Shown: piece by piece, positions 29,064-41,381 of the stretch
How positions within the stretch are numbered: the stretch's first letter is position 1
Layout: each line of letters starts with the position of its first letter
Source of the DNA: Promethearchaeota archaeon
Lineage (GTDB): Archaea > Asgardarchaeota > Lokiarchaeia > Sigyniarchaeales > SOKP01
Assembly (NCBI GenBank): GCA_030603385.1
Contig: JAUVXW010000017.1
Coordinates: forward strand, 8,448 to 72,447
Length of the DNA: 64,000 nucleotides
Reading direction: 5' to 3'
The notes under the pieces: model-generated
Told to the model about the DNA's origin: nothing
The model's input: only the letters and a program-made list of their open reading frames with translations
Databases searched by the model: none
Made by a program: the position numbers and the translations under genes

Positions 29064-30263
29064 ATGAAGAAGAAAGGTATAGTAATTCTTATAATATCTG
29101 TTATAGTTATCGGTATATCGGGATATTTCATCATCCCCAAACTTTTAGAAGAAGACTTATTTGGTGATGAATTCTTTGATCCAGGTATTAGATATGATTG
29201 GGATCGTTTAGATTATATGGACGTGATTTTTGAGAATGAATCAGATATATATACTGTGAATGGTGCATGGTCTACTACAAATAGTTGCCCTTGGGTAATG
29301 GCTCATCTTGGATTTGATTTTGCTTTAGTTAACAACTCAAAAGTTCTTGCTGCTGCTCTAGGGCAAGTTAGCCACATTCGACTAATGGATTGGGGCAATG
29401 AAACAGAAAATAGGTATATGATAGGAGTGAATATTAGATTTAATGACAGCGTTTATGTAAACTATGGATTCGAACCTTGGACTATTGATATCAATGATCA
29501 CGAACATCAACAAAGATTAATTAATGTAAGCATAGGAGATTGGGTTGAGATTGGTCAAGAAATAGGTAGGTTCTTACAGATTGGTCATGGTGCACACATT
29601 CACTTTGATGTTATAGAAGATGATGTAAGAACTCGACTTGATAGATATTATTCTTCAGAGGGTTATAATCGAATGATGGATTTAGTGCATATTTGGCATC
29701 CTGAATGGCCATACCTGTGCTATGATGAAAATACACCATTAGATTATGTGAATACAACTTTTAGTTCAATATTAAATATAAACGATGTTCAAAAAGGTTA
29801 TTCAAATACAACTGAGTGTCCATGGGGTTCTATACACTTAGGATTTGATTTTTATTTTAAGAACAACAGTAGGATATACTCAGCAGCGCCTGGACTCGTA
29901 AAATCAATCAACCTAATAGATCGTGGATCTGGTAGTAATCAATATGCGATTAATATAACAATACAATTTAACGATGAAATTCAATGTGAATATATATTTG
30001 AGCTATGGACAAGTAATATTAATCATGTAAATACTCAAATGTTAAAATTATTTATTACTGAAGGGGAATGGATAATGTTAGGATGGGGTATAGGTGATTT
30101 TCATCAAGTTAACATAACCTACTCTCATGTCCATTTTGCTATACGGGAAAACGGTGAATACTTTCCCCTCACCAATTATTTCTCTACAACAGCGTCTAAT
30201 ATTATGTTAAATTTAGTAAAAACACATAATTCTTCCTGGAATTATTGGTGTTATACTGGTTAA
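29064..30263 (+). CDS. Membrane-anchored protein with two tandem M23 (LytM)-like metallopeptidase domains
   Basis: N-terminal TM. Domain 1 has AHLGFDFAL (HxGxD) and GAHIHFDV (HxH). Domain 2 has IHLGFDFYF and YSHVHFAI. Many N-x-S/T sequons. Confidence 0.55.
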   Translation: MKKKGIVILIISVIVIGISGYFIIPKLLEEDLFGDEFFDPGIRYDWDRLDYMDVIFENESDIYTVNGAWSTTNSCPWVMAHLGFDFALVNNSKVLAAALGQVSHIRLMDWGNETENRYMIGVNIRFNDSVYVNYGFEPWTIDINDHEHQQRLINVSIGDWVEIGQEIGRFLQIGHGAHIHFDVIEDDVRTRLDRYYSSEGYNRMMDLVHIWHPEWPYLCYDENTPLDYVNTTFSSILNINDVQKGYSNTTECPWGSIHLGFDFYFKNNSRIYSAAPGLVKSINLIDRGSGSNQYAINITIQFNDEIQCEYIFELWTSNINHVNTQMLKLFITEGEWIMLGWGIGDFHQVNITYSHVHFAIRENGEYFPLTNYFSTTASNIMLNLVKTHNSSWNYWCYTG

Positions 30264-31354: not shown

Positions 31355-31507
31355 AATTTTATGCCTAATTAATTAAGTTTTTAGGAGAGAAAAATAATTT
31401 TTTCTTAATTTTCGATAAATAAGGGATTCAAATAAATTTTTATATGCATTCCGTTGCTATATTTATAAATACCTATTATACAAAATTAGATAATAAAGGT
31501 AAAAGAA

Positions 31508-32944
31508 GTGTCAGAACAGAAACTTTTTCAAGTGTTCCAAAATATGCTGGAATTTGATCCCGCGGATTACTTAGTATCTAGTGAAGAACATGAACTTACA
31601 GATTTTCAGAAAAAAGTTATTGAAAATGCAACTGCGATAATGAAAGACAATATTATTGGCGAAGTTAAATCATTCGGGGGTAACTTAAAGGTCAATGAGG
31701 AAAAATTTAAAGAACTTGAAAATAGAGCAAATGAAGAATTAGAGAACGAGCAATACGACGATTTAAAGAAGGAATTGAAGAGTTACGTTAAAAAGTTACG
31801 AGAACTAATTGAAAAGACATGTGTCGCGATAATACCTGTAAAAGAAATGCCTTGGGTAGATGTTTTATTTCGAACAGTCCCTCGTATAGTTTTTGATAAG
31901 AAAGTAGAGTTTTTAGATAATACTATTGCATATTACGGGGAAATTAAGTGTGTTATCTCACGTTCCACTATCTTTGGTAAAATGAAGGATGAAAAACCCT
32001 TATTTGCTCCAATAATGGGGACTATTGATTTAGGAGGTTATAAACTCGATGAGGCTCAAAAAGGTTCTAAGTCTAAAGTTTATTCTTATGTAAGTGCCAT
32101 AATTGATTCCTTTGATTCCACATTAACAAGAAATCATCTTGCGAAATATCATGAAGCTTATCAAAGACATGGGGATCCTATTTGTGATTTTTTAATGAAG
32201 GATAATGAACTAATGAATTCAATGGAAAGAATCACTTCCGGTATTGAGTCAAATCGACTTTCTTCGGATATTGCAGTCTTTAGTATAGCAATACCTCAAA
32301 ATGCTGATAAAACTACTTTATTAGTAGTTGTTGACGAAGGGAAAGATTCAAACCAATTTTCAAGATGTTTTGAAGCTTTATTAAGATTTTCTGCTGAAGG
32401 TTGTAATGTCCCTTCTACTGGCACACCTACTCAACAACCACAAGCACCAGGACAACCTCAACCCCAACAACCTGGCACCGTGAGAACTCCCGGAGGTCAG
32501 GAACTTAAAGTGTGGTCTGCTGAAGAACTTGCATCAGAGGCTCAAAAGAGAATGCAATCTCAACCAGATGTACCTGTATGGACAGAAGAGGAATTAAATA
32601 AATTTTCTAGCGAACGTGGAACTGGTTTACCTGAAGGTATGGAAGTTTGGACTGAGGAAGATTTACAAGAATTAGCTCAAAAACGGCAGGGAGGTTTAGA
32701 TATTCCTGAATGGAAACCTGATAAAAATATGAAAGAATGTGTAAAATGCGGATATGCATTAAGACCTGGATGGAGTAAATGTCCTCATTGTGAAACACCT
32801 GTGGGTACTAAAATTGAATCTGAATCAAGTGAGACGCCGAGTTCAGACCAAAGTGAAGAATCAGAGGATGAATCTGACGAGATCAAAGAAGAAATACCTG
32901 AAGAAATATCTGAAGAAGAACCTGAAGAAAAAAAGGAAGAGTAA
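31508..32944 (+). CDS. Uncharacterised protein: globular N-domain, P/Q linker, triple W-x-EE-L repeat, zinc ribbon, acidic tail
   Basis: GTG start. PTQQPQAPGQPQPQQPG. Three copies of VW[ST][AE]E[ED]L. CVKCG...CPHCE. C-terminal E/S/D-rich tail. Confidence 0.6.
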   Translation: MSEQKLFQVFQNMLEFDPADYLVSSEEHELTDFQKKVIENATAIMKDNIIGEVKSFGGNLKVNEEKFKELENRANEELENEQYDDLKKELKSYVKKLRELIEKTCVAIIPVKEMPWVDVLFRTVPRIVFDKKVEFLDNTIAYYGEIKCVISRSTIFGKMKDEKPLFAPIMGTIDLGGYKLDEAQKGSKSKVYSYVSAIIDSFDSTLTRNHLAKYHEAYQRHGDPICDFLMKDNELMNSMERITSGIESNRLSSDIAVFSIAIPQNADKTTLLVVVDEGKDSNQFSRCFEALLRFSAEGCNVPSTGTPTQQPQAPGQPQPQQPGTVRTPGGQELKVWSAEELASEAQKRMQSQPDVPVWTEEELNKFSSERGTGLPEGMEVWTEEDLQELAQKRQGGLDIPEWKPDKNMKECVKCGYALRPGWSKCPHCETPVGTKIESESSETPSSDQSEESEDESDEIKEEIPEEISEEEPEEKKEE

Positions 32945-33125
32945 TCACTATTATTTTTTTCTCGAATTTTTATAATTTTGTTCATTTATAAATAACAAAA
33001 GAGTTATTATCTTTTATAAGTTAAACCGAAAACTTTAAAAGTGTACAAAGTCTGCAAGATTCCAAACTTTTTTTAAATAGCCTTTATTTTCAACCTTATA
33101 GGAATTAAGAATTTCGGAAATTTAA

Positions 33126-34157
33126 TTGCTACATAATATCTTTTTATTTAAGGGAAAGAAAGATCTGGAGGATCTTAATATTTATTGTTACCCTAAAGAA
33201 ATTATTAATGTAAACAATAAACTACTTGTTAATAATATCATAAAAGGGCATGATCAAGGAAAAATAAATGATAGAAAAGAATTACTTTCAAGCTGTAATA
33301 ATTTAAATCATTATAAAATTGATAAACCAGTTGCCCTATATATTAATGATTACAATATCTACACTTCTTGTATTGATGAGGATATTATCATAGGTTTAAT
33401 CTTTGAAGATGATGATAACCCTTACGATTATAAAGATATTTTTGAAGAATTATTGTGTGAATTGCTGAACAACGGCAATGGATATTCGTTCGAGGAAGAG
33501 ATGGAAATAGATAATTTATTAATCTCAATGTTCATTGATCTTCGAAGATATGGAGATGAAGTTGTAGAAAAAACTCCAGAAATAGAATTTTATTACCAGA
33601 GAGAGGCATTTTTTAAGGTATTCCTATTTGGAATTGATGAAGTTGGAAAAACAAGTTTTGTACGAAGGTTAAAAACTGGAGAATTCAATGAAAATTATTT
33701 CACTCCAACAAGAAAGTTTAATATAGAATACATTCAAGAAGAAGAACGAGGATTACTGGCTGTATGGGACATGCCAGGGCAAGAACTTTTCAGATCAAAA
33801 TGGCTTAAAGGGTTACAAGATTCTAATATTATTGTATATATGATAGATATCGCAAATCAGAGAAGATTTAAAGAATCAAAGAAAGAATTATGGAAAATCT
33901 TGAATAATAATGAATTGAATGGCATTCCATTATTGATCTTGGGAAATAAAAGTGATATAATCAAATATTCAGATGAAAATTATGAGACCCAACTTCAGAA
34001 TTTAAAGGAAGAAGTTATTGATTATTTTGACTTTGAAAAAGTGGAGAATAGGAATTGGAAATTCATTTTTACCTCAGTAAAAACCAATCACAACATTGAG
34101 AAAACAGTTCAAACGATCTTCGATTTGATATCAAATTATGAGCATATCCAAAAATAA
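33126..34157 (+). CDS. Arf-family-like small GTPase with a longin-like N-terminal domain
   Basis: C-terminal G domain: G1 LFGIDEVGKTSF, G3 WDMPGQELFRSKW (Arf-type W..GQ...R..W), G4 LGNKSD, G5 TSVKT. The first ~165 aa alternate short beta and helix segments (NIFLFKG / NIYCYP / ... / IIIGLIFED / YKDIFEELLCELL). TTG start directly follows an in-frame stop. Confidence 0.8.
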   Translation: MLHNIFLFKGKKDLEDLNIYCYPKEIINVNNKLLVNNIIKGHDQGKINDRKELLSSCNNLNHYKIDKPVALYINDYNIYTSCIDEDIIIGLIFEDDDNPYDYKDIFEELLCELLNNGNGYSFEEEMEIDNLLISMFIDLRRYGDEVVEKTPEIEFYYQREAFFKVFLFGIDEVGKTSFVRRLKTGEFNENYFTPTRKFNIEYIQEEERGLLAVWDMPGQELFRSKWLKGLQDSNIIVYMIDIANQRRFKESKKELWKILNNNELNGIPLLILGNKSDIIKYSDENYETQLQNLKEEVIDYFDFEKVENRNWKFIFTSVKTNHNIEKTVQTIFDLISNYEHIQK

Positions 34158-34299
34158 AGCGCTCTATTCTGGTAAATTTTGAAAAAAATTGATTTAATCA
34201 TTAAATTTAAATATCTAGGCATTTAAATTTCTATTATACGAAATAACAACTTTAGAAAGAATTATTAAACCTCCGTGAATATTGAAATAGGGGAAATGT

Positions 34300-34893
34300 A
34301 TGTCGAAAAGACTGAAAAAAGCGCTCCAAATAATGATAGATGAAAAAGAGGGGCACTTGTTTTTTGGAGATAAAAAGAAGGATTTAAAATTATTAATGCT
34401 ACGACCTATTGATTTAATTGAATTCTCTGAATTTGCTGGCACAAATGCTGATGATATACTTATCTGGGTTGGTAAGTCATTAGGAAGAACTTTTATGGAA
34501 AAGTTTTTCTACAGTAAAGACTGGGGGAGTGAGACTATGCCAACTAGAAAAGGTGTATTTCTAGGATCACTTGAAGCCTTAGAACTTATGGGATATGGAC
34601 AAATAATAGGCAAATTTAGAAAAGATCATATCTTAATCGAAGTGGAAGATTCGATTGCATGTGAGGAAACTGACAACATTATGGCCAAAAATCTGTGCCT
34701 ATTATACCTAGGAATCTTCAGTGGATTATTTGATATCTTACAAATGGATGTAGATGGAGAAGAAATCGGATGCGCCTTATTAGAAGAAGAAAAATGTACA
34801 TTTAAATTTGATTTTATTGGTGGAGAACTGGAAACTGGTTTAATTGATGAAGAATCTGAAGAAAATGTTTCTGAGTTTTTATCTACTCTTTAA
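34300..34893 (+). CDS. V4R-domain protein (4-vinyl reductase / TRAPP Bet3-related fold)
   Basis: Collinear with remembered V4R proteins: LKLLMLRPIDLIEF, ILIWVGKSLGRTFMEKF, LELMGYGQIIGKF..ILIEVEDSIACE, NLCLLYLGIFSGLFDIL, and GCALLEEEKCTFKFDF (the conserved Cys pair). Confidence 0.6.
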   Translation: MSKRLKKALQIMIDEKEGHLFFGDKKKDLKLLMLRPIDLIEFSEFAGTNADDILIWVGKSLGRTFMEKFFYSKDWGSETMPTRKGVFLGSLEALELMGYGQIIGKFRKDHILIEVEDSIACEETDNIMAKNLCLLYLGIFSGLFDILQMDVDGEEIGCALLEEEKCTFKFDFIGGELETGLIDEESEENVSEFLSTL

Positions 34894-35169: not shown

Positions 35170-35460
35170 ATGGGAAAAAAAGAAGACGGTCAAGAGAACT
35201 CAGTCTTCGTAGGCCGTCGTCCTACGATGAATTATGTAATGGCAGTGATGATGATCTTGAATAAAGAAGAAGATTGTACTGTAAAGGCTCGCGGCAGAGC
35301 GATTTCTCACGCCGTCGATATTTGTGAGATTTTAAAAAATCGCTTTTTGAAAGGAACGGAATATAAAGAGATTCGCATTTCTACGGAGCAACTTAAGAGC
35401 GAGGATGGTCGTGAAAATAATGTAAGCTCAATAGAGATCGTTCTCTCACCTCCGGGATAA
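35170..35460 (+). CDS. albA: Alba DNA/RNA-binding chromatin protein
   Basis: 96 aa. NSVFVGRRPTMNYVMAVMMIL...VKARGRAISHAVDICEILKNRF...SSIEIVLS matches the Alba fold signature. Confidence 0.9.
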   Translation: MGKKEDGQENSVFVGRRPTMNYVMAVMMILNKEEDCTVKARGRAISHAVDICEILKNRFLKGTEYKEIRISTEQLKSEDGRENNVSSIEIVLSPPG

Positions 35461-36007: not shown

Positions 36008-38356
36008 ATGAGTAGAAAAGCTGCAAAAATTAAAATTGATGAATATAAAGGGCCACTCGGAACTATAAAAGGATTTGAACTAACAACCGGTAAAATATCA
36101 TATGGTGATGAAACTGAATGGGAACCACTTGGACCGACAGCCTCACCTCATATACCTACACTGCGATCATGGTTTTTTAAGATGATGGAAAGGTACAAAC
36201 CGTTTTATATGCCAATCTGTGATATGTGCTGTTTATGCACTTACGGTAAATGTAACCTTTCTAAAGGCCGAACAGGTGCGTGTGGTATTAATATAGAAGG
36301 TGCATGCGCAAAAATAGTGGAGATTGCCTGTTGTATAGGTGCAGCGTGCCACTCGGCTCATGGTGATCATCTACTACATTGGCTAAAACAGAAATATGGA
36401 AATGTGCCAATTAATTTTGGAAACAATATCGCTGTAGAGATGCCACATACTCGATTAGTAGTTGGGATGAAACCTGAGACGCTTGAGGATTTAGAGACTG
36501 CGATGGAGTGGGTACAAAGCACTATCACGCATCTCTTAGCCGCGGGTCACACGGGTCAAGAGTCAAATTATTTAGATTATGAGGCTAAAAGCTTTTTAGC
36601 AGGACTAGCAGATTCTGTAGGCATGGAAATTTCCGACGCAGTGCAGATTGCGGCGTATGGGTTTCCACTGGGTGATCCAGATGTCCCAATCGTAGAATTA
36701 GGAATGGGCACTATGGATAGTGAAAATAAAGCGACAATTTTAATGATAGGTCATAATGTTGCCCCTGGTGTAGAACTTGTTGATTACATGAGAGAAAATA
36801 ACTTGGATAGTAAAGTAGATGTAGGTGCAATTTGTTGTACTGCATTAGATTTAACTAGATACTATTCTGGTGCTAAAATCGTTGGTTCTCTCTCCCGTCA
36901 GATGTTTTACATTCGCTCTGGTCTAGCCGATGTCGTAATGGTTGATGAACAATGCGTTAATCTTCGCAGTCACGAGCAAGCAGCATTAGTAAATGCTCCG
37001 TTTATTGCGACAAATGAAAAAAATATGGGCGGATTACCTGATCGAACTAATGATCCTGCTGAAGAAATAATAGATGATTTAGTTAGTGGCAAAATGGATG
37101 GAGTATTAATCCTAGATCCAGTAAAGGCAGGAAAAGTTGCTGTTGAAACGGCTATTAAAGTAAGACCTATAAGAAAGTCTAAAAGTGCCATCCCTGATGA
37201 GCAAGGCTGTATTGATATGGCAATGAATTGTAATGGTTGTGGCAATTGTCAGAGAAATTGTCCAAACGATTTACCTATTGTTGAAGGTGTTGTAATGGTA
37301 AAAGATGGTGATTTCTCATTATTAGAAGAAGTATATGATTCTTGTCTGGATTGTGGTAGGTGTGAAGCCGAATGTATGAAAGAAGTATCTCCTTTAACTT
37401 TAATCATGTATGCGGGAAGGGAAAAAATTCGAAATGAAAAATATAATTGTAGATCTGGTCGCGGACCAATTATGGACACAGAAATCCGTAATGTCGGTGC
37501 TCCTATTGTGTTAGGAGAAATACCCGGTATTATCGCAATTATAGGATGTGCTAATTATGCTAAAGATATCCAAGAATTATACTTGTTGGCAGAAGAATTC
37601 TTAATTAGAAATTATATAGTCTGTGTTAGTGGGTGTGCTGCTATGGATATTGGATTAGTCAAGGATGAAGAGGGTAAAACACTTTACGATCGATTCCCTG
37701 GAGATTTTGACCGTGGAGGCTTAGTAAACGTTGGCTCATGTGTTTCGAATCCACACATAACTGGAGCAGCACTAAAAGTCGCTAATATCTTCGCGAGACG
37801 CCCTCTAAGGGGTAATTTTGAAGAGATTGCCGATTATGTTCTTAATCGTGTAGGTGCAGTCGGTGTTGCGTGGGGTGCGATGTCCCAGAAAGCCGCGAGT
37901 ATCGCGAGTATGGCTAATGGAGTAGGAGTTCCTGCAGTATGCGGGCCACATTCAGCAGAATATCGACGTATGTATATTGGGCGTTCTGATGATGAAGACA
38001 CTTGGAAGGTTTTTAATGCAAGAGATGGAACAGAAGGTCATCTAGTAGGACCCGGACCAGAACACTTATTAACAACTGCAGAAAGTATTGAACAAGCGAT
38101 CTGCCTTGTTGCTAAATTATGCCTGAGGCCAGCAGATAACTCTAAAGGGAGAATGATTAAACTTTCTCACTGGATTGATTTAGAGAGAAAATACAAAGGA
38201 GTTCAATTTCCTAATGACTTAGAGAGATTTATACGTGTTGAAGCAGATATACCAATTGCTATAAAAGATGAAGTAAAGGCATTTCTCGAAGAGAGAGGTT
38301 GGGAACCAAAAGAAATCATCGATCCAACCTTATTAAAAAGGCTCTGCCGAACATAA
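36008..38356 (+). CDS. cdhA: Acetyl-CoA decarbonylase/synthase complex subunit alpha (CODH catalytic subunit)
   Basis: 782 aa. N-terminal Cys cluster CDMCCLCTYGKC, an inserted 2x[4Fe-4S] ferredoxin module (CNGCGNCQRNCP; CLDCGRCEAEC), and C-cluster-region blocks (GCANYA, SGCAAMD, VGSCVSNPH). Confidence 0.9.
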   Translation: MSRKAAKIKIDEYKGPLGTIKGFELTTGKISYGDETEWEPLGPTASPHIPTLRSWFFKMMERYKPFYMPICDMCCLCTYGKCNLSKGRTGACGINIEGACAKIVEIACCIGAACHSAHGDHLLHWLKQKYGNVPINFGNNIAVEMPHTRLVVGMKPETLEDLETAMEWVQSTITHLLAAGHTGQESNYLDYEAKSFLAGLADSVGMEISDAVQIAAYGFPLGDPDVPIVELGMGTMDSENKATILMIGHNVAPGVELVDYMRENNLDSKVDVGAICCTALDLTRYYSGAKIVGSLSRQMFYIRSGLADVVMVDEQCVNLRSHEQAALVNAPFIATNEKNMGGLPDRTNDPAEEIIDDLVSGKMDGVLILDPVKAGKVAVETAIKVRPIRKSKSAIPDEQGCIDMAMNCNGCGNCQRNCPNDLPIVEGVVMVKDGDFSLLEEVYDSCLDCGRCEAECMKEVSPLTLIMYAGREKIRNEKYNCRSGRGPIMDTEIRNVGAPIVLGEIPGIIAIIGCANYAKDIQELYLLAEEFLIRNYIVCVSGCAAMDIGLVKDEEGKTLYDRFPGDFDRGGLVNVGSCVSNPHITGAALKVANIFARRPLRGNFEEIADYVLNRVGAVGVAWGAMSQKAASIASMANGVGVPAVCGPHSAEYRRMYIGRSDDEDTWKVFNARDGTEGHLVGPGPEHLLTTAESIEQAICLVAKLCLRPADNSKGRMIKLSHWIDLERKYKGVQFPNDLERFIRVEADIPIAIKDEVKAFLEERGWEPKEIIDPTLLKRLCRT

Positions 38357-38541: not shown

Positions 38542-38760
38542 TTGGATAAAAATGATAAGGATTTATTAAAATTGTCGAAATATTGTAAACACTGGGCAGA
38601 TCACAACAACTCCCATAAAGAGAGTTACTTAAAATGGCTAAATATTGCCAAGGAAAAAGGATTAGCTTCTATTGTTGAAAACTTAAATAAAGCAATTGAA
38701 ATGTTAGATAAATGTAATGAGTATTTACTTTCTGCTTATCAAGAGTTAGAAAGAGACTAG
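38542..38760 (+). CDS. Small helical protein with a Cys/His-rich N-terminal helix, function unknown
   Basis: 72 aa, TTG start, CKHWADHNNSHKE motif. Located downstream of cdhA. Coding status is unproven. Confidence 0.35.
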   Translation: MDKNDKDLLKLSKYCKHWADHNNSHKESYLKWLNIAKEKGLASIVENLNKAIEMLDKCNEYLLSAYQELERD

Positions 38761-38792: not shown

Positions 38793-40001
38793 TTATAGGA
38801 ATAGATTAATTAATGGTAATAATTGTTCTTTAAAATACCCTATTTTACCTTCCAATTTTTCAGGTTCTTCAGAAAGAGCCCAAAGATATACAGGAATTTG
38901 TAGATCTGAGTATTCAAATAGTTTTTCTCCTCGGATTGTAAACCCATTAAGAGGCAAATCAAGTCTTATTGATTTCTCACGAATCAAACCAATAGAGTTA
39001 TAGAAGTTGGAAAGGGTCTGTAGAAGTAGCGCGGTATTATTTATTAACATCTCATCTGTATCTGTACTGGTATAACTACCAAAAATTAACCCATCCATAG
39101 ATACTAAACTTGAGGCTTTTGCTTCTACTTGAGAGCAGAAATCTTCAAGGATATTTTCGATTATTTCAGAAGTATCAGAGACTTTCTTCAACGCAATACT
39201 AAACATTTGCATTATGGTTTCTCTTTGAAATACAGTTGTATCACAGAAATCAACTGAAAACTGCTCAAACTCATCTGAGACTTTAATAAATTTATTTTTT
39301 ATTGTAGTTACATTTTGTTGCCATTGAAGTGTTTTTCGAATATCCTGATCACTTTTGCTTATAACAATGAGAAGAGCAGGTTTTTCTTCTAAATCTACTA
39401 AAACCTTCAGAACCTCTCTGAAATAGTTTGCAGATTCCGGAAATCTATCAGGATCCTGACTGTCAATAACATAAAGTATGATGTCTGCTTCTGTGAAAAA
39501 TAATTCTGGTCTATTAAAGTAAAGCTTCTCTCTGTATTGGACTTGCCCGCCAAGGTCCCATGAAACTATCGGGTAACCGAAAAAGTCTAGCTTTTCTCTT
39601 TTTACACCCCTTGTTGGAAGTAGAGATTTAATTATTGAAAATTTATCTTGAACTACTGCTAAAATAGAAGTTTTACCGCCGTTGTCGAGTCCGATCATAA
39701 GTAATTTCTTATGTCTCCTTAATTGTTCTTGAACATTTTTCTTGATAACTTGAGTTATTTTAACCCATTTTTGTAACATCGATGGTAATACATCTTTTAT
39801 TTCAGGAAGATTAGCAACAGATATGTTTGCTAAATCTCCAATAGATTTTATACCATTTGCAAGTAATTGATCAGAGCTAACTTTATCGACACCTATTAAT
39901 GTTTCTGGTTTAAATCTCAAAATTTCTTCAAGTTCACTGATCAAAACATTACGTTTAAAGAAATCCTTTAATACAACTTTTTTACTGGTTTGATCTGACA
40001 T
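38793..40001 (-). CDS. Multidomain Arf-like small GTPase: HhH-like N-domain, G domain, roadblock/LC7-like C-domain
   Basis: G1 LMIGLDNGGKTSIL (Arf GLDxAGKT), G3 WDLGGQVQYREKLY, G4 VISKSDQ. The N-terminus LIGVDKVSSDQLLANGIKSIGDLANISVANL resembles the RadA HhH domain. The C-terminal ~140 aa (ILEDFCSQVEAKASSLVSMDGLIFGSY...) has a roadblock-like alpha/beta pattern. Confidence 0.8.
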   Translation of the reverse strand: MSDQTSKKVVLKDFFKRNVLISELEEILRFKPETLIGVDKVSSDQLLANGIKSIGDLANISVANLPEIKDVLPSMLQKWVKITQVIKKNVQEQLRRHKKLLMIGLDNGGKTSILAVVQDKFSIIKSLLPTRGVKREKLDFFGYPIVSWDLGGQVQYREKLYFNRPELFFTEADIILYVIDSQDPDRFPESANYFREVLKVLVDLEEKPALLIVISKSDQDIRKTLQWQQNVTTIKNKFIKVSDEFEQFSVDFCDTTVFQRETIMQMFSIALKKVSDTSEIIENILEDFCSQVEAKASSLVSMDGLIFGSYTSTDTDEMLINNTALLLQTLSNFYNSIGLIREKSIRLDLPLNGFTIRGEKLFEYSDLQIPVYLWALSEEPEKLEGKIGYFKEQLLPLINLFL

Positions 40002-40175: not shown

Positions 40176-41381
40176 ATGACTGAGCAAAGAATACCTGAAA
40201 ATATTGTAGTGTGCTTGGATACTTCAAGATCGATGTATAAGAAGGATTTTCCTCCTAATCGATTAACTTGTTGCACCAATGCCATTAAAATACTCATAAG
40301 TAAAAGGTTTGATTTAGATAGTTTAAGTACCTTTGCTATAATCAAATTTTCTGACAAAGCAGAAAAAATAATTGATTTTACCACCTCAACATATATCAAT
40401 AACCTTAATAAGGCGTTAGATTCTCTTAAATGTGGAGGATATTCTGCATTAGGTGATGGATTAGCTTTAGGAATCAAAACTGTTATTGCAGAATTGCGGA
40501 AAATTGGTGCTAAACCTCCAAGAATCCTCTTAATCTCTGACGGAAAAATTATGAATACTGCTGTTGATCCTTTAAAAATGGCACGATTGGCACAAGGATT
40601 AAATATTAAAATTGATACATTTTTAGTAGGAGAGATTGGCCAAGTAAATATGTTAAAAAGATTAAGTGATATTACAAAAGGCAGGTATTTTTATAATAGT
40701 GATTCTGAGAGTTTAATAAGATCGGCTCAAGAAATTGCTGATGATAATTATAAAAGGTATGGATCTAACAAGGAGGTAATAAGTGAAAATCCTGCTTTTC
40801 TGAGAAAAATTGCGGCAGATTTATTGAGAGTTCAAGATTTAACTAAAGATCAAAAACAACGGGCAAAACAAATAAGAGGAGAGGTTGATTTTAAGAAATG
40901 TTCAATCTGCTTTTCTGATAAAAATCCTTATACTAAGGGATCCTTTTATATTACAGGTCGTTATTGTCCTAATTGTACTACTCCATTCCATATACATTGT
41001 TTAGCGGGTTGGGCAGATTCTCAAAAAGATCATATAGTGAAAAGATCAGGAACAGCACGATGCCCACATTGTTTTTATTTATTAAGAATTCCAACTGAGG
41101 TTACTCAAATACAAAAATTACGCATTCTTTCTCGTGGCAATAAGGAAGAACCCGCAAAAAGACCTGAAATCCTCCCAGCAAAATATATCGAAGATGTTGC
41201 CTTACTTGGAGAGGATGCTCTGTTTAGTGCATGTCCCGTATGTCATTTAATATTTGAGAAAGGACAGCGGGCAGTTCAATGTGGTAATCTTGAATGTAAT
41301 GCACTTTATCATGAGGATTGCTTTAAAAAACTAAAAGATGGTCATTGTAGAAATTGTGATGTTAAACTCCATCTATATTAA
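40176..41381 (+). CDS. vWA-domain protein with two C-terminal C4HC3 (RING-variant/PHD-like) zinc fingers
   Basis: MIDAS motif VVCLDTSRSMY (DxSxS). Finger 1: CSIC-x18-CPNC-x4-H-x2-C-x20-CPHC, with an FHxxCLxxW RING-H2-like core. Finger 2: CPVC-x12-C-x4-C-x4-H-x2-C-x8-CRNC. Confidence 0.75.
   Translation: MTEQRIPENIVVCLDTSRSMYKKDFPPNRLTCCTNAIKILISKRFDLDSLSTFAIIKFSDKAEKIIDFTTSTYINNLNKALDSLKCGGYSALGDGLALGIKTVIAELRKIGAKPPRILLISDGKIMNTAVDPLKMARLAQGLNIKIDTFLVGEIGQVNMLKRLSDITKGRYFYNSDSESLIRSAQEIADDNYKRYGSNKEVISENPAFLRKIAADLLRVQDLTKDQKQRAKQIRGEVDFKKCSICFSDKNPYTKGSFYITGRYCPNCTTPFHIHCLAGWADSQKDHIVKRSGTARCPHCFYLLRIPTEVTQIQKLRILSRGNKEEPAKRPEILPAKYIEDVALLGEDALFSACPVCHLIFEKGQRAVQCGNLECNALYHEDCFKKLKDGHCRNCDVKLHLY

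Follow-up and report, generated by a model that had tools for sequence, protein, structure and literature searches.

A conserved three-gene neighborhood around a longin-like ArfR GTPase in Lokiarchaeia, with candidate V4R and zinc-ribbon partners

The window analyzed here, i.e. the whole stretch of 64,000 nucleotides (nt) taken from the forward strand of a Promethearchaeota archaeon genome (assembly GCA_030603385.1, contig JAUVXW010000017.1, positions 8,448 to 72,447), contains a gene for an Arf-type small GTPase of the published class ArfR that carries a predicted longin-like N-terminal domain and lies between two co-directional genes, one for a 478-amino acid (aa) zinc-ribbon protein (up478) directly upstream and one for a stand-alone V4R-fold protein directly downstream. 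The trio is conserved, was found only in Lokiarchaeia (NCBI class Promethearchaeia), and is tentatively regarded by us as a signaling module centered on the ArfR switch, a reading to which we would give slightly less than an even chance. It is plausible that the three genes form a conserved module; that they act as a guanine nucleotide exchange factor (GEF) in the manner of TRAPP is unproven. The literature already covers the ArfR class, fusions of longin and GTPase domains, and V4R/TRAPPC3-like proteins of Asgard archaea; no description of the conserved ArfR/V4R/zinc-ribbon trio was found in the searchable literature, and the three-gene neighborhood thus appears to be undescribed.

The elements of the locus are the following (window positions, strand, with the supporting evidence in brackets; AF2 stands for AlphaFold2).

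31427..31471, + strand: promoter-like (BRE/TATA-like; BRE, transcription factor B recognition element) element of the 478-aa gene (conservation; unique in the window)
31508..32944, + strand: 478-aa protein 'up478' with a C4 zinc ribbon (alignment; directly upstream of the GTPase gene in 74/76 loci)
33055..33121, + strand: element preceding the GTPase gene, with a TATA-like AAACTTTTTTTAA and a leader that is conserved (conservation; unique in the window)
33126..33605, + strand: longin-like domain predicted at the N-terminus of the GTPase, aa 1-160 (AF2 topology beta-beta, alpha, beta-beta-beta, alpha, alpha)
33606..34157, + strand: ArfR G domain, aa 161-343 (Pfam Arf, PDB relatives, Foldseek)
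34199..34238, + strand: promoter-like element of the V4R gene, CATTAAATTTAAATATCTAGGCATTTAAATTTCTATTATA (conservation; unique in the window)
34300..34893, + strand: stand-alone V4R-fold protein of 197 aa with an ATG start (weak Pfam V4R match, AF2, Foldseek)

The GTPase open reading frame (ORF; 33126..34157, + strand) encodes 343 aa from a TTG start, and the co-oriented pair that it was predicted to form with the V4R ORF, 142 nt apart on the + strand, is present as described. Since each of the two proteins has hundreds of homologues with 65-100% identity in Asgard metagenome-assembled genomes (MAGs), both ORFs can be taken as real genes. No Rfam family was found between 30 and 41 kb of the window.

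Conservation of the gene neighborhood

The neighborhood was scanned with one genome per GTDB species, which yielded 80 loci with GTPase identities of 50-93%, 76 of them informative for the V4R and up478 genes; in the counts below, the denominators are the loci with enough flanking DNA. Most of these loci are labeled Promethearchaeota/Promethearchaeia, about one-fifth carry other Asgard labels and one a bacterial label. The positions of the neighbors relative to the GTPase gene are as follows.

V4R gene: directly downstream, same strand, 73/76 loci
478-aa gene: directly upstream, same strand, 74/76 loci
2-hydroxyacid dehydrogenase gene: upstream, divergent, 42/74 loci
CdhA gene: <=6 kb downstream, same strand, 46/52 loci (directly after the V4R gene in 21)

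The two loci in which the 478-aa gene is not the immediate upstream neighbor do contain it, behind an insertion. The gaps between the genes are narrowly distributed, with medians of 176 nt upstream and 145 nt downstream of the GTPase gene and values of 90-250 nt, and reverse look-ups starting from two V4R homologues returned the identical arrangement. The V4R gene still lies downstream of two more distant GTPase orthologues (42% and 47% identity; L084 and L088). A response-regulator gene occupies the place of the upstream zinc-ribbon gene in L088, and an extra gene on the opposite strand follows the V4R gene in L084. The gene downstream of a more distant paralogue (L083) was considered as a further case and ruled out, as it is not a V4R gene.

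The original prediction had proposed the GTPase and V4R genes as a unit and had asked whether their adjacency is conserved in related genomes. The adjacency holds in the 73 loci and in the two more distant orthologue lineages, but the unit that is conserved turns out to be larger than a pair, as it includes the zinc-ribbon protein. The sequences place the origin of the pair in one ArfR lineage of Lokiarchaeia, where it has been kept.

The GTPase: an ArfR G domain behind a longin-like domain

As judged from its sequence, the G domain has the full set of motifs by which an Arf-type switch binds nucleotide and carries out catalysis. It had been predicted to be complete, and so it is: the translation contains GIDEVGKT, WDMPGQELFRSKW and NKSD, and Pfam Arf (PF00025) matches residues 159-332 with 105 bits (E=4e-30; curated cut-off 22.3 bits), with secondary Pfam matches to SRPRB and Gtr1_RagA. 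The motifs comprise G1 GIDEVGKT, switch I PT195, switch II WDMPGQ219ELFRSKW, which conforms to the Arf signature WDxxGQxxxRxxW, G4 NKSD and G5 TSVK; the G-motif residues, including K175, T195, Q219, N274, K275 and D277, are invariant in an alignment of 96 homologues. The closest solved structures by sequence are Arl8A/B, Arl3 and Arf1; next come 8ouk to 8oun, which are Asgard ArfR entries. An AF2 model built from the 96-sequence alignment (predicted local distance difference test, pLDDT, 79) gave Foldseek matches of its G domain to Arl8b and HodArfR1 with template-modeling (TM) scores of 0.91 (on target) and 0.86, respectively.

The family of this GTPase is already catalogued by sequence, its published class being ArfR. 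The assignment is by proxy, i.e. through likeness to orthologues labeled ArfR from a published tree: both KKK44255.1 (Lokiarch_19980, Lokiarchaeum GC14_75) and TKJ24248.1 (Loki_b32) are listed as ArfR in Table S3 of Vargova et al. (10.1101/2024.02.28.582541), the former being the sole ArfR of the Lokiarchaeum GC14_75 genome. The window GTPase is 68% identical to KKK44255.1 over the full length, and the MAG that encodes TKJ24248.1 (Loki_b32) also contains one of the scanned loci (L012).

In the model, the place of the amphipathic N-terminal helix of canonical Arfs is taken by a folded domain, residues 1-160, with a short helix (151-158) before strand 1 of the G domain. DSSP assigns to this N-domain, the mean pLDDT of which is about 80 outside the loops, strands at residues 2-9 and 18-22, a helix at 32-46, a variable loop, strands at 69-73, 76-83 and 87-93, and helices at 102-116, 125-147 and 151-158. 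The domain has no starting helix, with which roadblock domains begin, and the predicted order of its elements is that of a longin domain, unlike that of roadblock. The beta-beta-alpha-beta-beta-beta-alpha pattern previously proposed for this region is thereby recovered in the model of residues 1-160, and a homologous longin-GTPase of the strain MK-D1 supports it indirectly: WP_147662730.1 aligns with the window GTPase with 38% identity over a stretch that starts at the third longin strand and includes the G domain, and Supplementary Fig. 6b of Tran et al. (PMC10933270), based on AlphaFold models, shows it as 'LG' (longin-GTPase). Longin N-termini among Asgard Arfs were also noted by Zhu et al. 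The modeled topology thus supports the N-domain as a longin domain.

By sequence, the N-domain stands rather alone. Its invariant motifs are DNPYDY (97-102) and FIDxRR (136-141), it occurs in just 21 clusters of 1.84 billion representative proteins, and each full-length match (>300 aa) has the size of a GTPase fusion. No Pfam family was matched by GTPase residues 1-158, and no PDB chain by the N-domain searched as a 32-sequence profile at E<=10. When the full-length GTPase model was searched with Foldseek, the G domain dominated and the top 50 hits were GTPase structures only.

The V4R protein and the TRAPP analogy

The second protein had been matched to the V4R domain block by block, including its terminal Cys pair. 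That pair, C158 and C166, is invariant among 108 homologues and the fold match is clear, but the Pfam V4R score (PF02830; E=1.6e-5, 25.3 bits) falls under the 31-bit cut-off. A V4R-containing region, the C-terminal region of MsvR, also matches the 197-aa protein (E=2e-6), and precomputed PF02830 matches exist for many close homologues and for the distant orthologues in L084 and L088. Together with C133 and E155, the Cys pair makes up a set of four invariant residues, whose Cys-x21/22-Glu-x3/5-Cys-x7-Cys spacing corresponds to the zinc ligands C151, E172, C177 and C185 of DmpR (PMC7264223). The Cys-Glu-Cys-Cys arrangement is a zinc-site-like pattern, and metal binding is putative. Further conserved features of the protein are a basic N-terminus and an acidic tail at the C-terminus (residues 183-197), the latter nearly invariant. 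Its AF2 model, built from 108 sequences, has a predicted TM score (pTM) of 0.73; confidence in this monomer is low at the N-terminal strands and the tail 183-197, segments that may become ordered only in a dimer or complex. The N-terminal arms of the DmpR homodimer are intertwined (PMC7264223).

Which of the known V4R-like folds does this model resemble most? Complete phenol-sensor domains of PoxR, DmpR and MopR are matched by Foldseek with probability 1.00, TM 0.51-0.55 and 183-218 aligned columns, the best E-values belong to H-NOX domains (TM 0.40-0.49), and the scores for Bet3/TRAPPC3 are TM 0.56/0.65 (1wc8), 0.52/0.61 (7b6d_A) and 0.46/0.54 (1sz7). The same set of structural neighbors was reported for Thor-TRAPPC3 (Tran et al., PMC10933270). 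On the model, the Bet3-like fold is thus a likeness at the level of the fold, common to V4R and H-NOX. A heme-binding H-NOX reading was set aside: the zinc-type pattern is conserved, and no Y-x-S-x-R heme-contact motif was seen on reading the sequence by eye.

These fold scores bear directly on a TRAPP-like scenario, in which the V4R dimer and the longin domain would form a catalytic exchange surface for the attached GTPase, as Bet3/Bet5/Trs23 do for Ypt1/Rab1, and in which the V4R protein might use its acidic tail much as Bet3 uses its C-terminus. The likeness to Bet3/TRAPPC3 in fold, the longin topology of the N-domain, the conserved GTPase-V4R adjacency and the near invariance of a tail that is modeled with low confidence are all consistent with it, as is a longin-TRAPPC3 fusion from Heimdall (Tran et al., PMC10933270). 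However, the PoxR/DmpR/MopR folds (TM 0.53-0.55) and the H-NOX folds (best E-values) score as well as Bet3 does, there is no Pfam match to TRAPP_Bet3 (PF04051) at E<=1, and the 108-sequence V4R-family profile matched no Bet3, TRAPPC3 or V4R chain among PDB sequences. The Cys-Glu-Cys-Cys pattern matches that of the zinc site in bacterial V4R sensors, in place of which mouse TRAPPC3 has a hydrogen bond, and the longin domain is present in cis rather than as separate subunits. Because the zinc-site residue pattern is kept and no Bet3 sequence match exists, the protein is best described, from its sequence, as a stand-alone sensor-type V4R and not as a Bet3 orthologue; the relation to Bet3 that had been proposed earlier needs to be corrected to one of fold. 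The GTPase, moreover, is Arf-type (ArfR), not Rab, so that the parallel with TRAPP extends to the folds but not to homology of the two systems. Taken together, we consider the TRAPP-like GEF, as an argument from analogy, to be decidedly improbable.

The zinc-ribbon protein up478

The alignment of up478 homologues reveals a helical N-terminus, a conserved core of ~200 residues (about 100-300) with the motifs IPVKEMPW, PLFAP, YHEGYQRHGDPICDF and CFEALLRFSA, and a variable P/Q-rich linker. These are followed by three to four tandem W-x-x-E-E-L...K-R units (330-405), the C4 zinc ribbon (C411-C428) and an acidic tail. The zinc ribbon alone was recognized in Pfam, NCBIfam and PDB profile searches, and hhalign comparisons of up478 with the longin and V4R alignments were insignificant (probabilities 1.2% and 0.2%, respectively).

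Promoter-like elements and start codons

Each of the three genes is preceded by an A+T-rich element at a fixed distance, and the three elements are largely gene-specific. In 54/60 related loci, the element of the 478-aa gene has its core, AAATAAATTTTTATAT, at a median of 80 nt before the start. The core upstream of the GTPase gene was found in 69/74 loci at a median of 64 nt (range 61-76) and is absent upstream of the V4R gene. The two halves of the V4R element precede the V4R gene in 58/75 and 64/75 loci, respectively, and the GTPase gene in just 2/74; the first half also occurs upstream of the 478-aa gene in 19/60. In the window the V4R element is unique, with 0 matches expected by chance. 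We read the three elements as separate archaeal promoters with short leaders, as predicted from sequence conservation. A shared operator upstream of all three genes was considered and rejected, the motifs being largely gene-specific and that of the V4R gene unique in the window. As for the usual operon criteria, the genes are co-directional, but the gaps are long and a gene-specific element lies in each; because each gene has its own conserved promoter-like element, the cluster is not a classical or demonstrable operon.

The start codons differ between the two genes of the pair. That of the V4R gene is ATG in 71/75 loci, while that of the GTPase gene is TTG in 66, GTG in 8 and ATG in 0 of 74 loci. 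The non-ATG start seems genuine because in 37 loci an in-frame stop codon lies immediately upstream of it. Such a conserved TTG/GTG start suggests that translation of the GTPase may be deliberately kept low.

Conserved module or inherited gene order?

What does it mean that three genes with separate promoter-like elements stay together over so many species? One answer, which we regard as rather unlikely, is that the synteny has simply been inherited: the V4R protein would be an independent small-molecule or redox binder, up478 would be unrelated, and the slow decay of gene order would keep both beside ArfR. Several findings favor this answer and weigh against a functional module. The region is broadly syntenic in the clade, where the dehydrogenase and CdhA genes are conserved as well (42/74 and 46/52) and a block of CdhA, a DUF8180-like ORF and a second, Rag-like GTPase recurs; because such unrelated neighbors recur too, part of the trio adjacency may be inherited gene order. 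With its own TATA-like element for each gene and gaps of 90-250 nt, the trio is unlike an operon, and co-transcription is not implied. The V4R gene is missing in 3/76 loci in which the GTPase gene is intact, and the sampled paralogous longin-ArfR lineages with 32-38% identity, including the MK-D1 type, have neither a V4R nor an up478 neighbor. Two further points count against the module: the longin assignment is one of predicted topology only, with no sequence or profile match, and the GTPase genes of MK-D1 are generally not found in operons with roadblock, longin or TRAPPC3 genes (Tran et al., PMC10933270).

Other findings are harder to reconcile with inherited gene order. The trio is clearly more stable (96-97%) than its flanks (57% for the dehydrogenase), and the pairing with V4R outlasts changes in the flanks in L084 and L088, where the GTPase has diverged to 42-47% identity. 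Distance-matrix correlations, a weak statistic given here without a significance test, amount to 0.89 for GTPase-V4R and 0.92 for GTPase-up478, as compared with 0.70-0.81 between the trio and the dehydrogenase and 0.43-0.53 between the trio and CdhA; with the dehydrogenase and CdhA controlled for, the partial correlations are still 0.78 (GTPase-V4R) and 0.79 (GTPase-up478).

Moreover, a V4R/small-GTPase neighborhood recurs with other paralogues. The query in this case was the MglA-like protein WP_147661793.1 of MK-D1, printed in the supplement of Tran et al., whose accession directly precedes that of WP_147661794.1, the 'MKD1 PoxR' V4R of the same authors (PMC10933270). In MK-D1-like contigs (L094-L098, L110) a 148-aa ORF and the genes for the MglA-like GTPase (198 aa) and for a membrane protein of 124 aa follow one another on one strand, a V4R gene (155-160 aa) comes next in convergent orientation, two genes away from the GTPase gene, and the arrangement is kept in 5/5 MK-D1-like metagenomic contigs with room for it. 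The V4R protein of these contigs shares 30% identity with the window V4R family (hhalign E=1e-4). This neighborhood is a hint of an independent second V4R-GTPase association, and the Heimdall longin-TRAPPC3 fusion (Tran et al., PMC10933270) likewise hints at a link among V4R, longin and GTPase.

Returning to the signaling module around ArfR, how might its three products work together? In the scheme that we envisage, the longin domain would serve as a dimerization and docking platform, and its position might be coupled to the Arf interswitch toggle via the linker helix 151-158. The V4R protein, as a zinc-stabilized homodimer with a ligand pocket, would dock on this platform and set or read the nucleotide state, so that the switch would respond to a redox cue or to a small ligand of hydrophobic nature, and up478 would act as a scaffold or adaptor via its repeats and zinc ribbon. 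The three genes would be transcribed separately, and translation of the GTPase would be held low by its TTG/GTG start. Stated in full, the trio would then be the native regulatory complex of the Lokiarchaeia ArfR, in which the V4R dimer and the zinc-ribbon protein on the longin platform control nucleotide exchange or hydrolysis, possibly gated by a ligand in the V4R pocket; this fuller reading is distinctly unlikely.

The more modest suggestion that the zinc-site V4R and zinc-ribbon proteins are candidate native partners of an Asgard Arf-type switch matters in its own right. The eukaryotic Arf family has been proposed to descend from archaeal ArfR proteins, the native GEFs, GTPase-activating proteins and effectors of ArfR have been stated to be unknown (PMC11914678), and genome layout rarely pairs Asgard GTPases with regulators (Tran et al., PMC10933270). 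Here, one ArfR lineage, which includes the sole ArfR of Lokiarchaeum GC14_75, has two fixed neighbors over dozens of species and thus offers two concrete proteins for binding and exchange assays. Were they to interact, an Arf-type switch would have been linked with the longin and V4R/Bet3 folds before eukaryogenesis. Were the full regulatory complex true, the trio would constitute a prokaryotic precedent for the association of Bet3 fold, longin fold and GTPase in TRAPP, as well as the first regulator to be identified for an Arf-family switch in Asgard archaea. Were the proteins not to interact, the locus would serve as a warning that conserved synteny in Asgard archaea need not mean interaction.

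Flanking genes and database labels

Downstream of the trio, the window contains an Alba chromatin protein gene (35170..35460, + strand; NCBIfam AlbA, 116 bits) between the V4R and CdhA genes, a stand-alone CdhA-type CO dehydrogenase alpha subunit gene without adjacent cdhB-E genes (36008..38356, + strand) and a 72-aa His-rich ORF (38542..38760, + strand; KHWADHNNSH), in the place of which related contigs have a DUF8180 gene. Beyond CdhA and on the opposite strand lies a second small GTPase gene (38793..40001, - strand), whose 402-aa Rag/Gtr1-like product (Pfam Gtr1_RagA E=2e-21, Arf E=2e-20) has an N-terminal extension of ~90 aa and a C-terminal region of ~130 aa; the same layout is seen in related contigs (L091-L093). 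Divergent from this gene is one whose product combines a VWA domain with RING-like zinc fingers (40176..41381, + strand; Pfam VWA, Ssl1-like, Prok-RING_1). Upstream of the trio, a 399-aa protein with an N-terminal membrane anchor and two tandem peptidase M23-like halves is encoded at 29064..30263 (+ strand), and in some loci its gene occupies the place of the dehydrogenase gene.

The proximity of CdhA raises the thought that the trio might serve this enzyme, with the V4R protein as a gas, redox or metal sensor and the GTPase as a maturation or regulatory factor of CO dehydrogenase. It would fit the position of CdhA on the same strand within 6 kb in the 46 of 52 loci listed above, and directly after the V4R gene in 21 of them, the H-NOX sensor domains that head the Foldseek E-values of the V4R model, and the small His-rich DUF8180-like ORF after CdhA. 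The distance to CdhA is, however, variable, with unrelated genes inserted: the Alba insertion of the window is found in just two of the 80 loci (L001 and L006), which makes the V4R-CdhA interval variable. CdhA distances also correlate poorly with those of the trio, and the H-NOX motif mentioned above was not seen when the V4R sequence was read. We know of no precedent for longin-bearing Arf-type GTPases as metallocenter chaperones. A role in the service of CdhA is accordingly the least credible of the scenarios considered here, and we give it very little chance indeed.

Two observations concern the labels of public MAGs. A contig deposited as 'Candidatus Nanopelagicaceae bacterium' (Actinobacteria; L067, DATKTW010000126.1) carries the full Asgard trio with 53-61% identity and is most likely a mis-binned contig. 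Similarly, the loci L002, L021, L023, L025, L031, L062 and those of other JBHL* MAGs, deposited as Hodarchaeota, Thorarchaeota, Hermodarchaeota or Odinarchaeota, are 54-83% identical to, and fully syntenic with, loci labeled Promethearchaeota, and judging by these sequences the phylum labels of the JBHL* submission series look unreliable.

Comparison with known systems

The closest relatives of the GTPase are the Asgard ArfR proteins ('AArf' in PMC11914678), to which its G domain belongs and among which it is structurally close to HodArfR1 and GerdArfR1. These studied ArfRs are, by contrast, of ~180 aa and have an N-terminal amphipathic helix where the window GTPase has a predicted longin-like domain of 160 aa. 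Proteins with large flanking domains were excluded from the helix analysis of Vargova et al., who describe no ArfR partners or neighborhood (10.1101/2024.02.28.582541). The 'LG' longin-GTPases of MK-D1 share the architecture of the window GTPase but belong to a different orthologous group (PMC10933270).

The V4R protein resembles the DmpR/PoxR/MopR sensors (6iy8, 5fru, 5kbe) in fold over its whole length and in the spacing of its Cys and Glu residues. Unlike them, it is a stand-alone protein of 197 aa without an AAA+ or DNA-binding output, and sequence comparison reveals no similarity between it and their PDB chains.

Cooperation between a longin or roadblock platform and a G domain that is Arf-like or of the Arf family is known from two systems, namely from the signal recognition particle (SRP) receptor, where the longin-like SRX domain of SR-alpha meets SR-beta, and from Rag GTPases with roadblock domains on Ragulator. 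The platform of the window GTPase differs in being N-terminal and in cis, and there is no sign of a membrane anchor, of a link to SRP or of partners resembling Ragulator. Finally, the TRAPP core, in which Bet3/TRAPPC3 and the longin subunits Bet5/Trs23 together act as the GEF of Rab1/Ypt1, likewise combines a Bet3/V4R-like and a longin-like fold with a small GTPase, whereas the window locus, devoid of a Bet3 sequence signal, keeps the zinc-site pattern in its V4R protein, employs an Arf-type GTPase and has its predicted longin domain fused to the GTPase itself.

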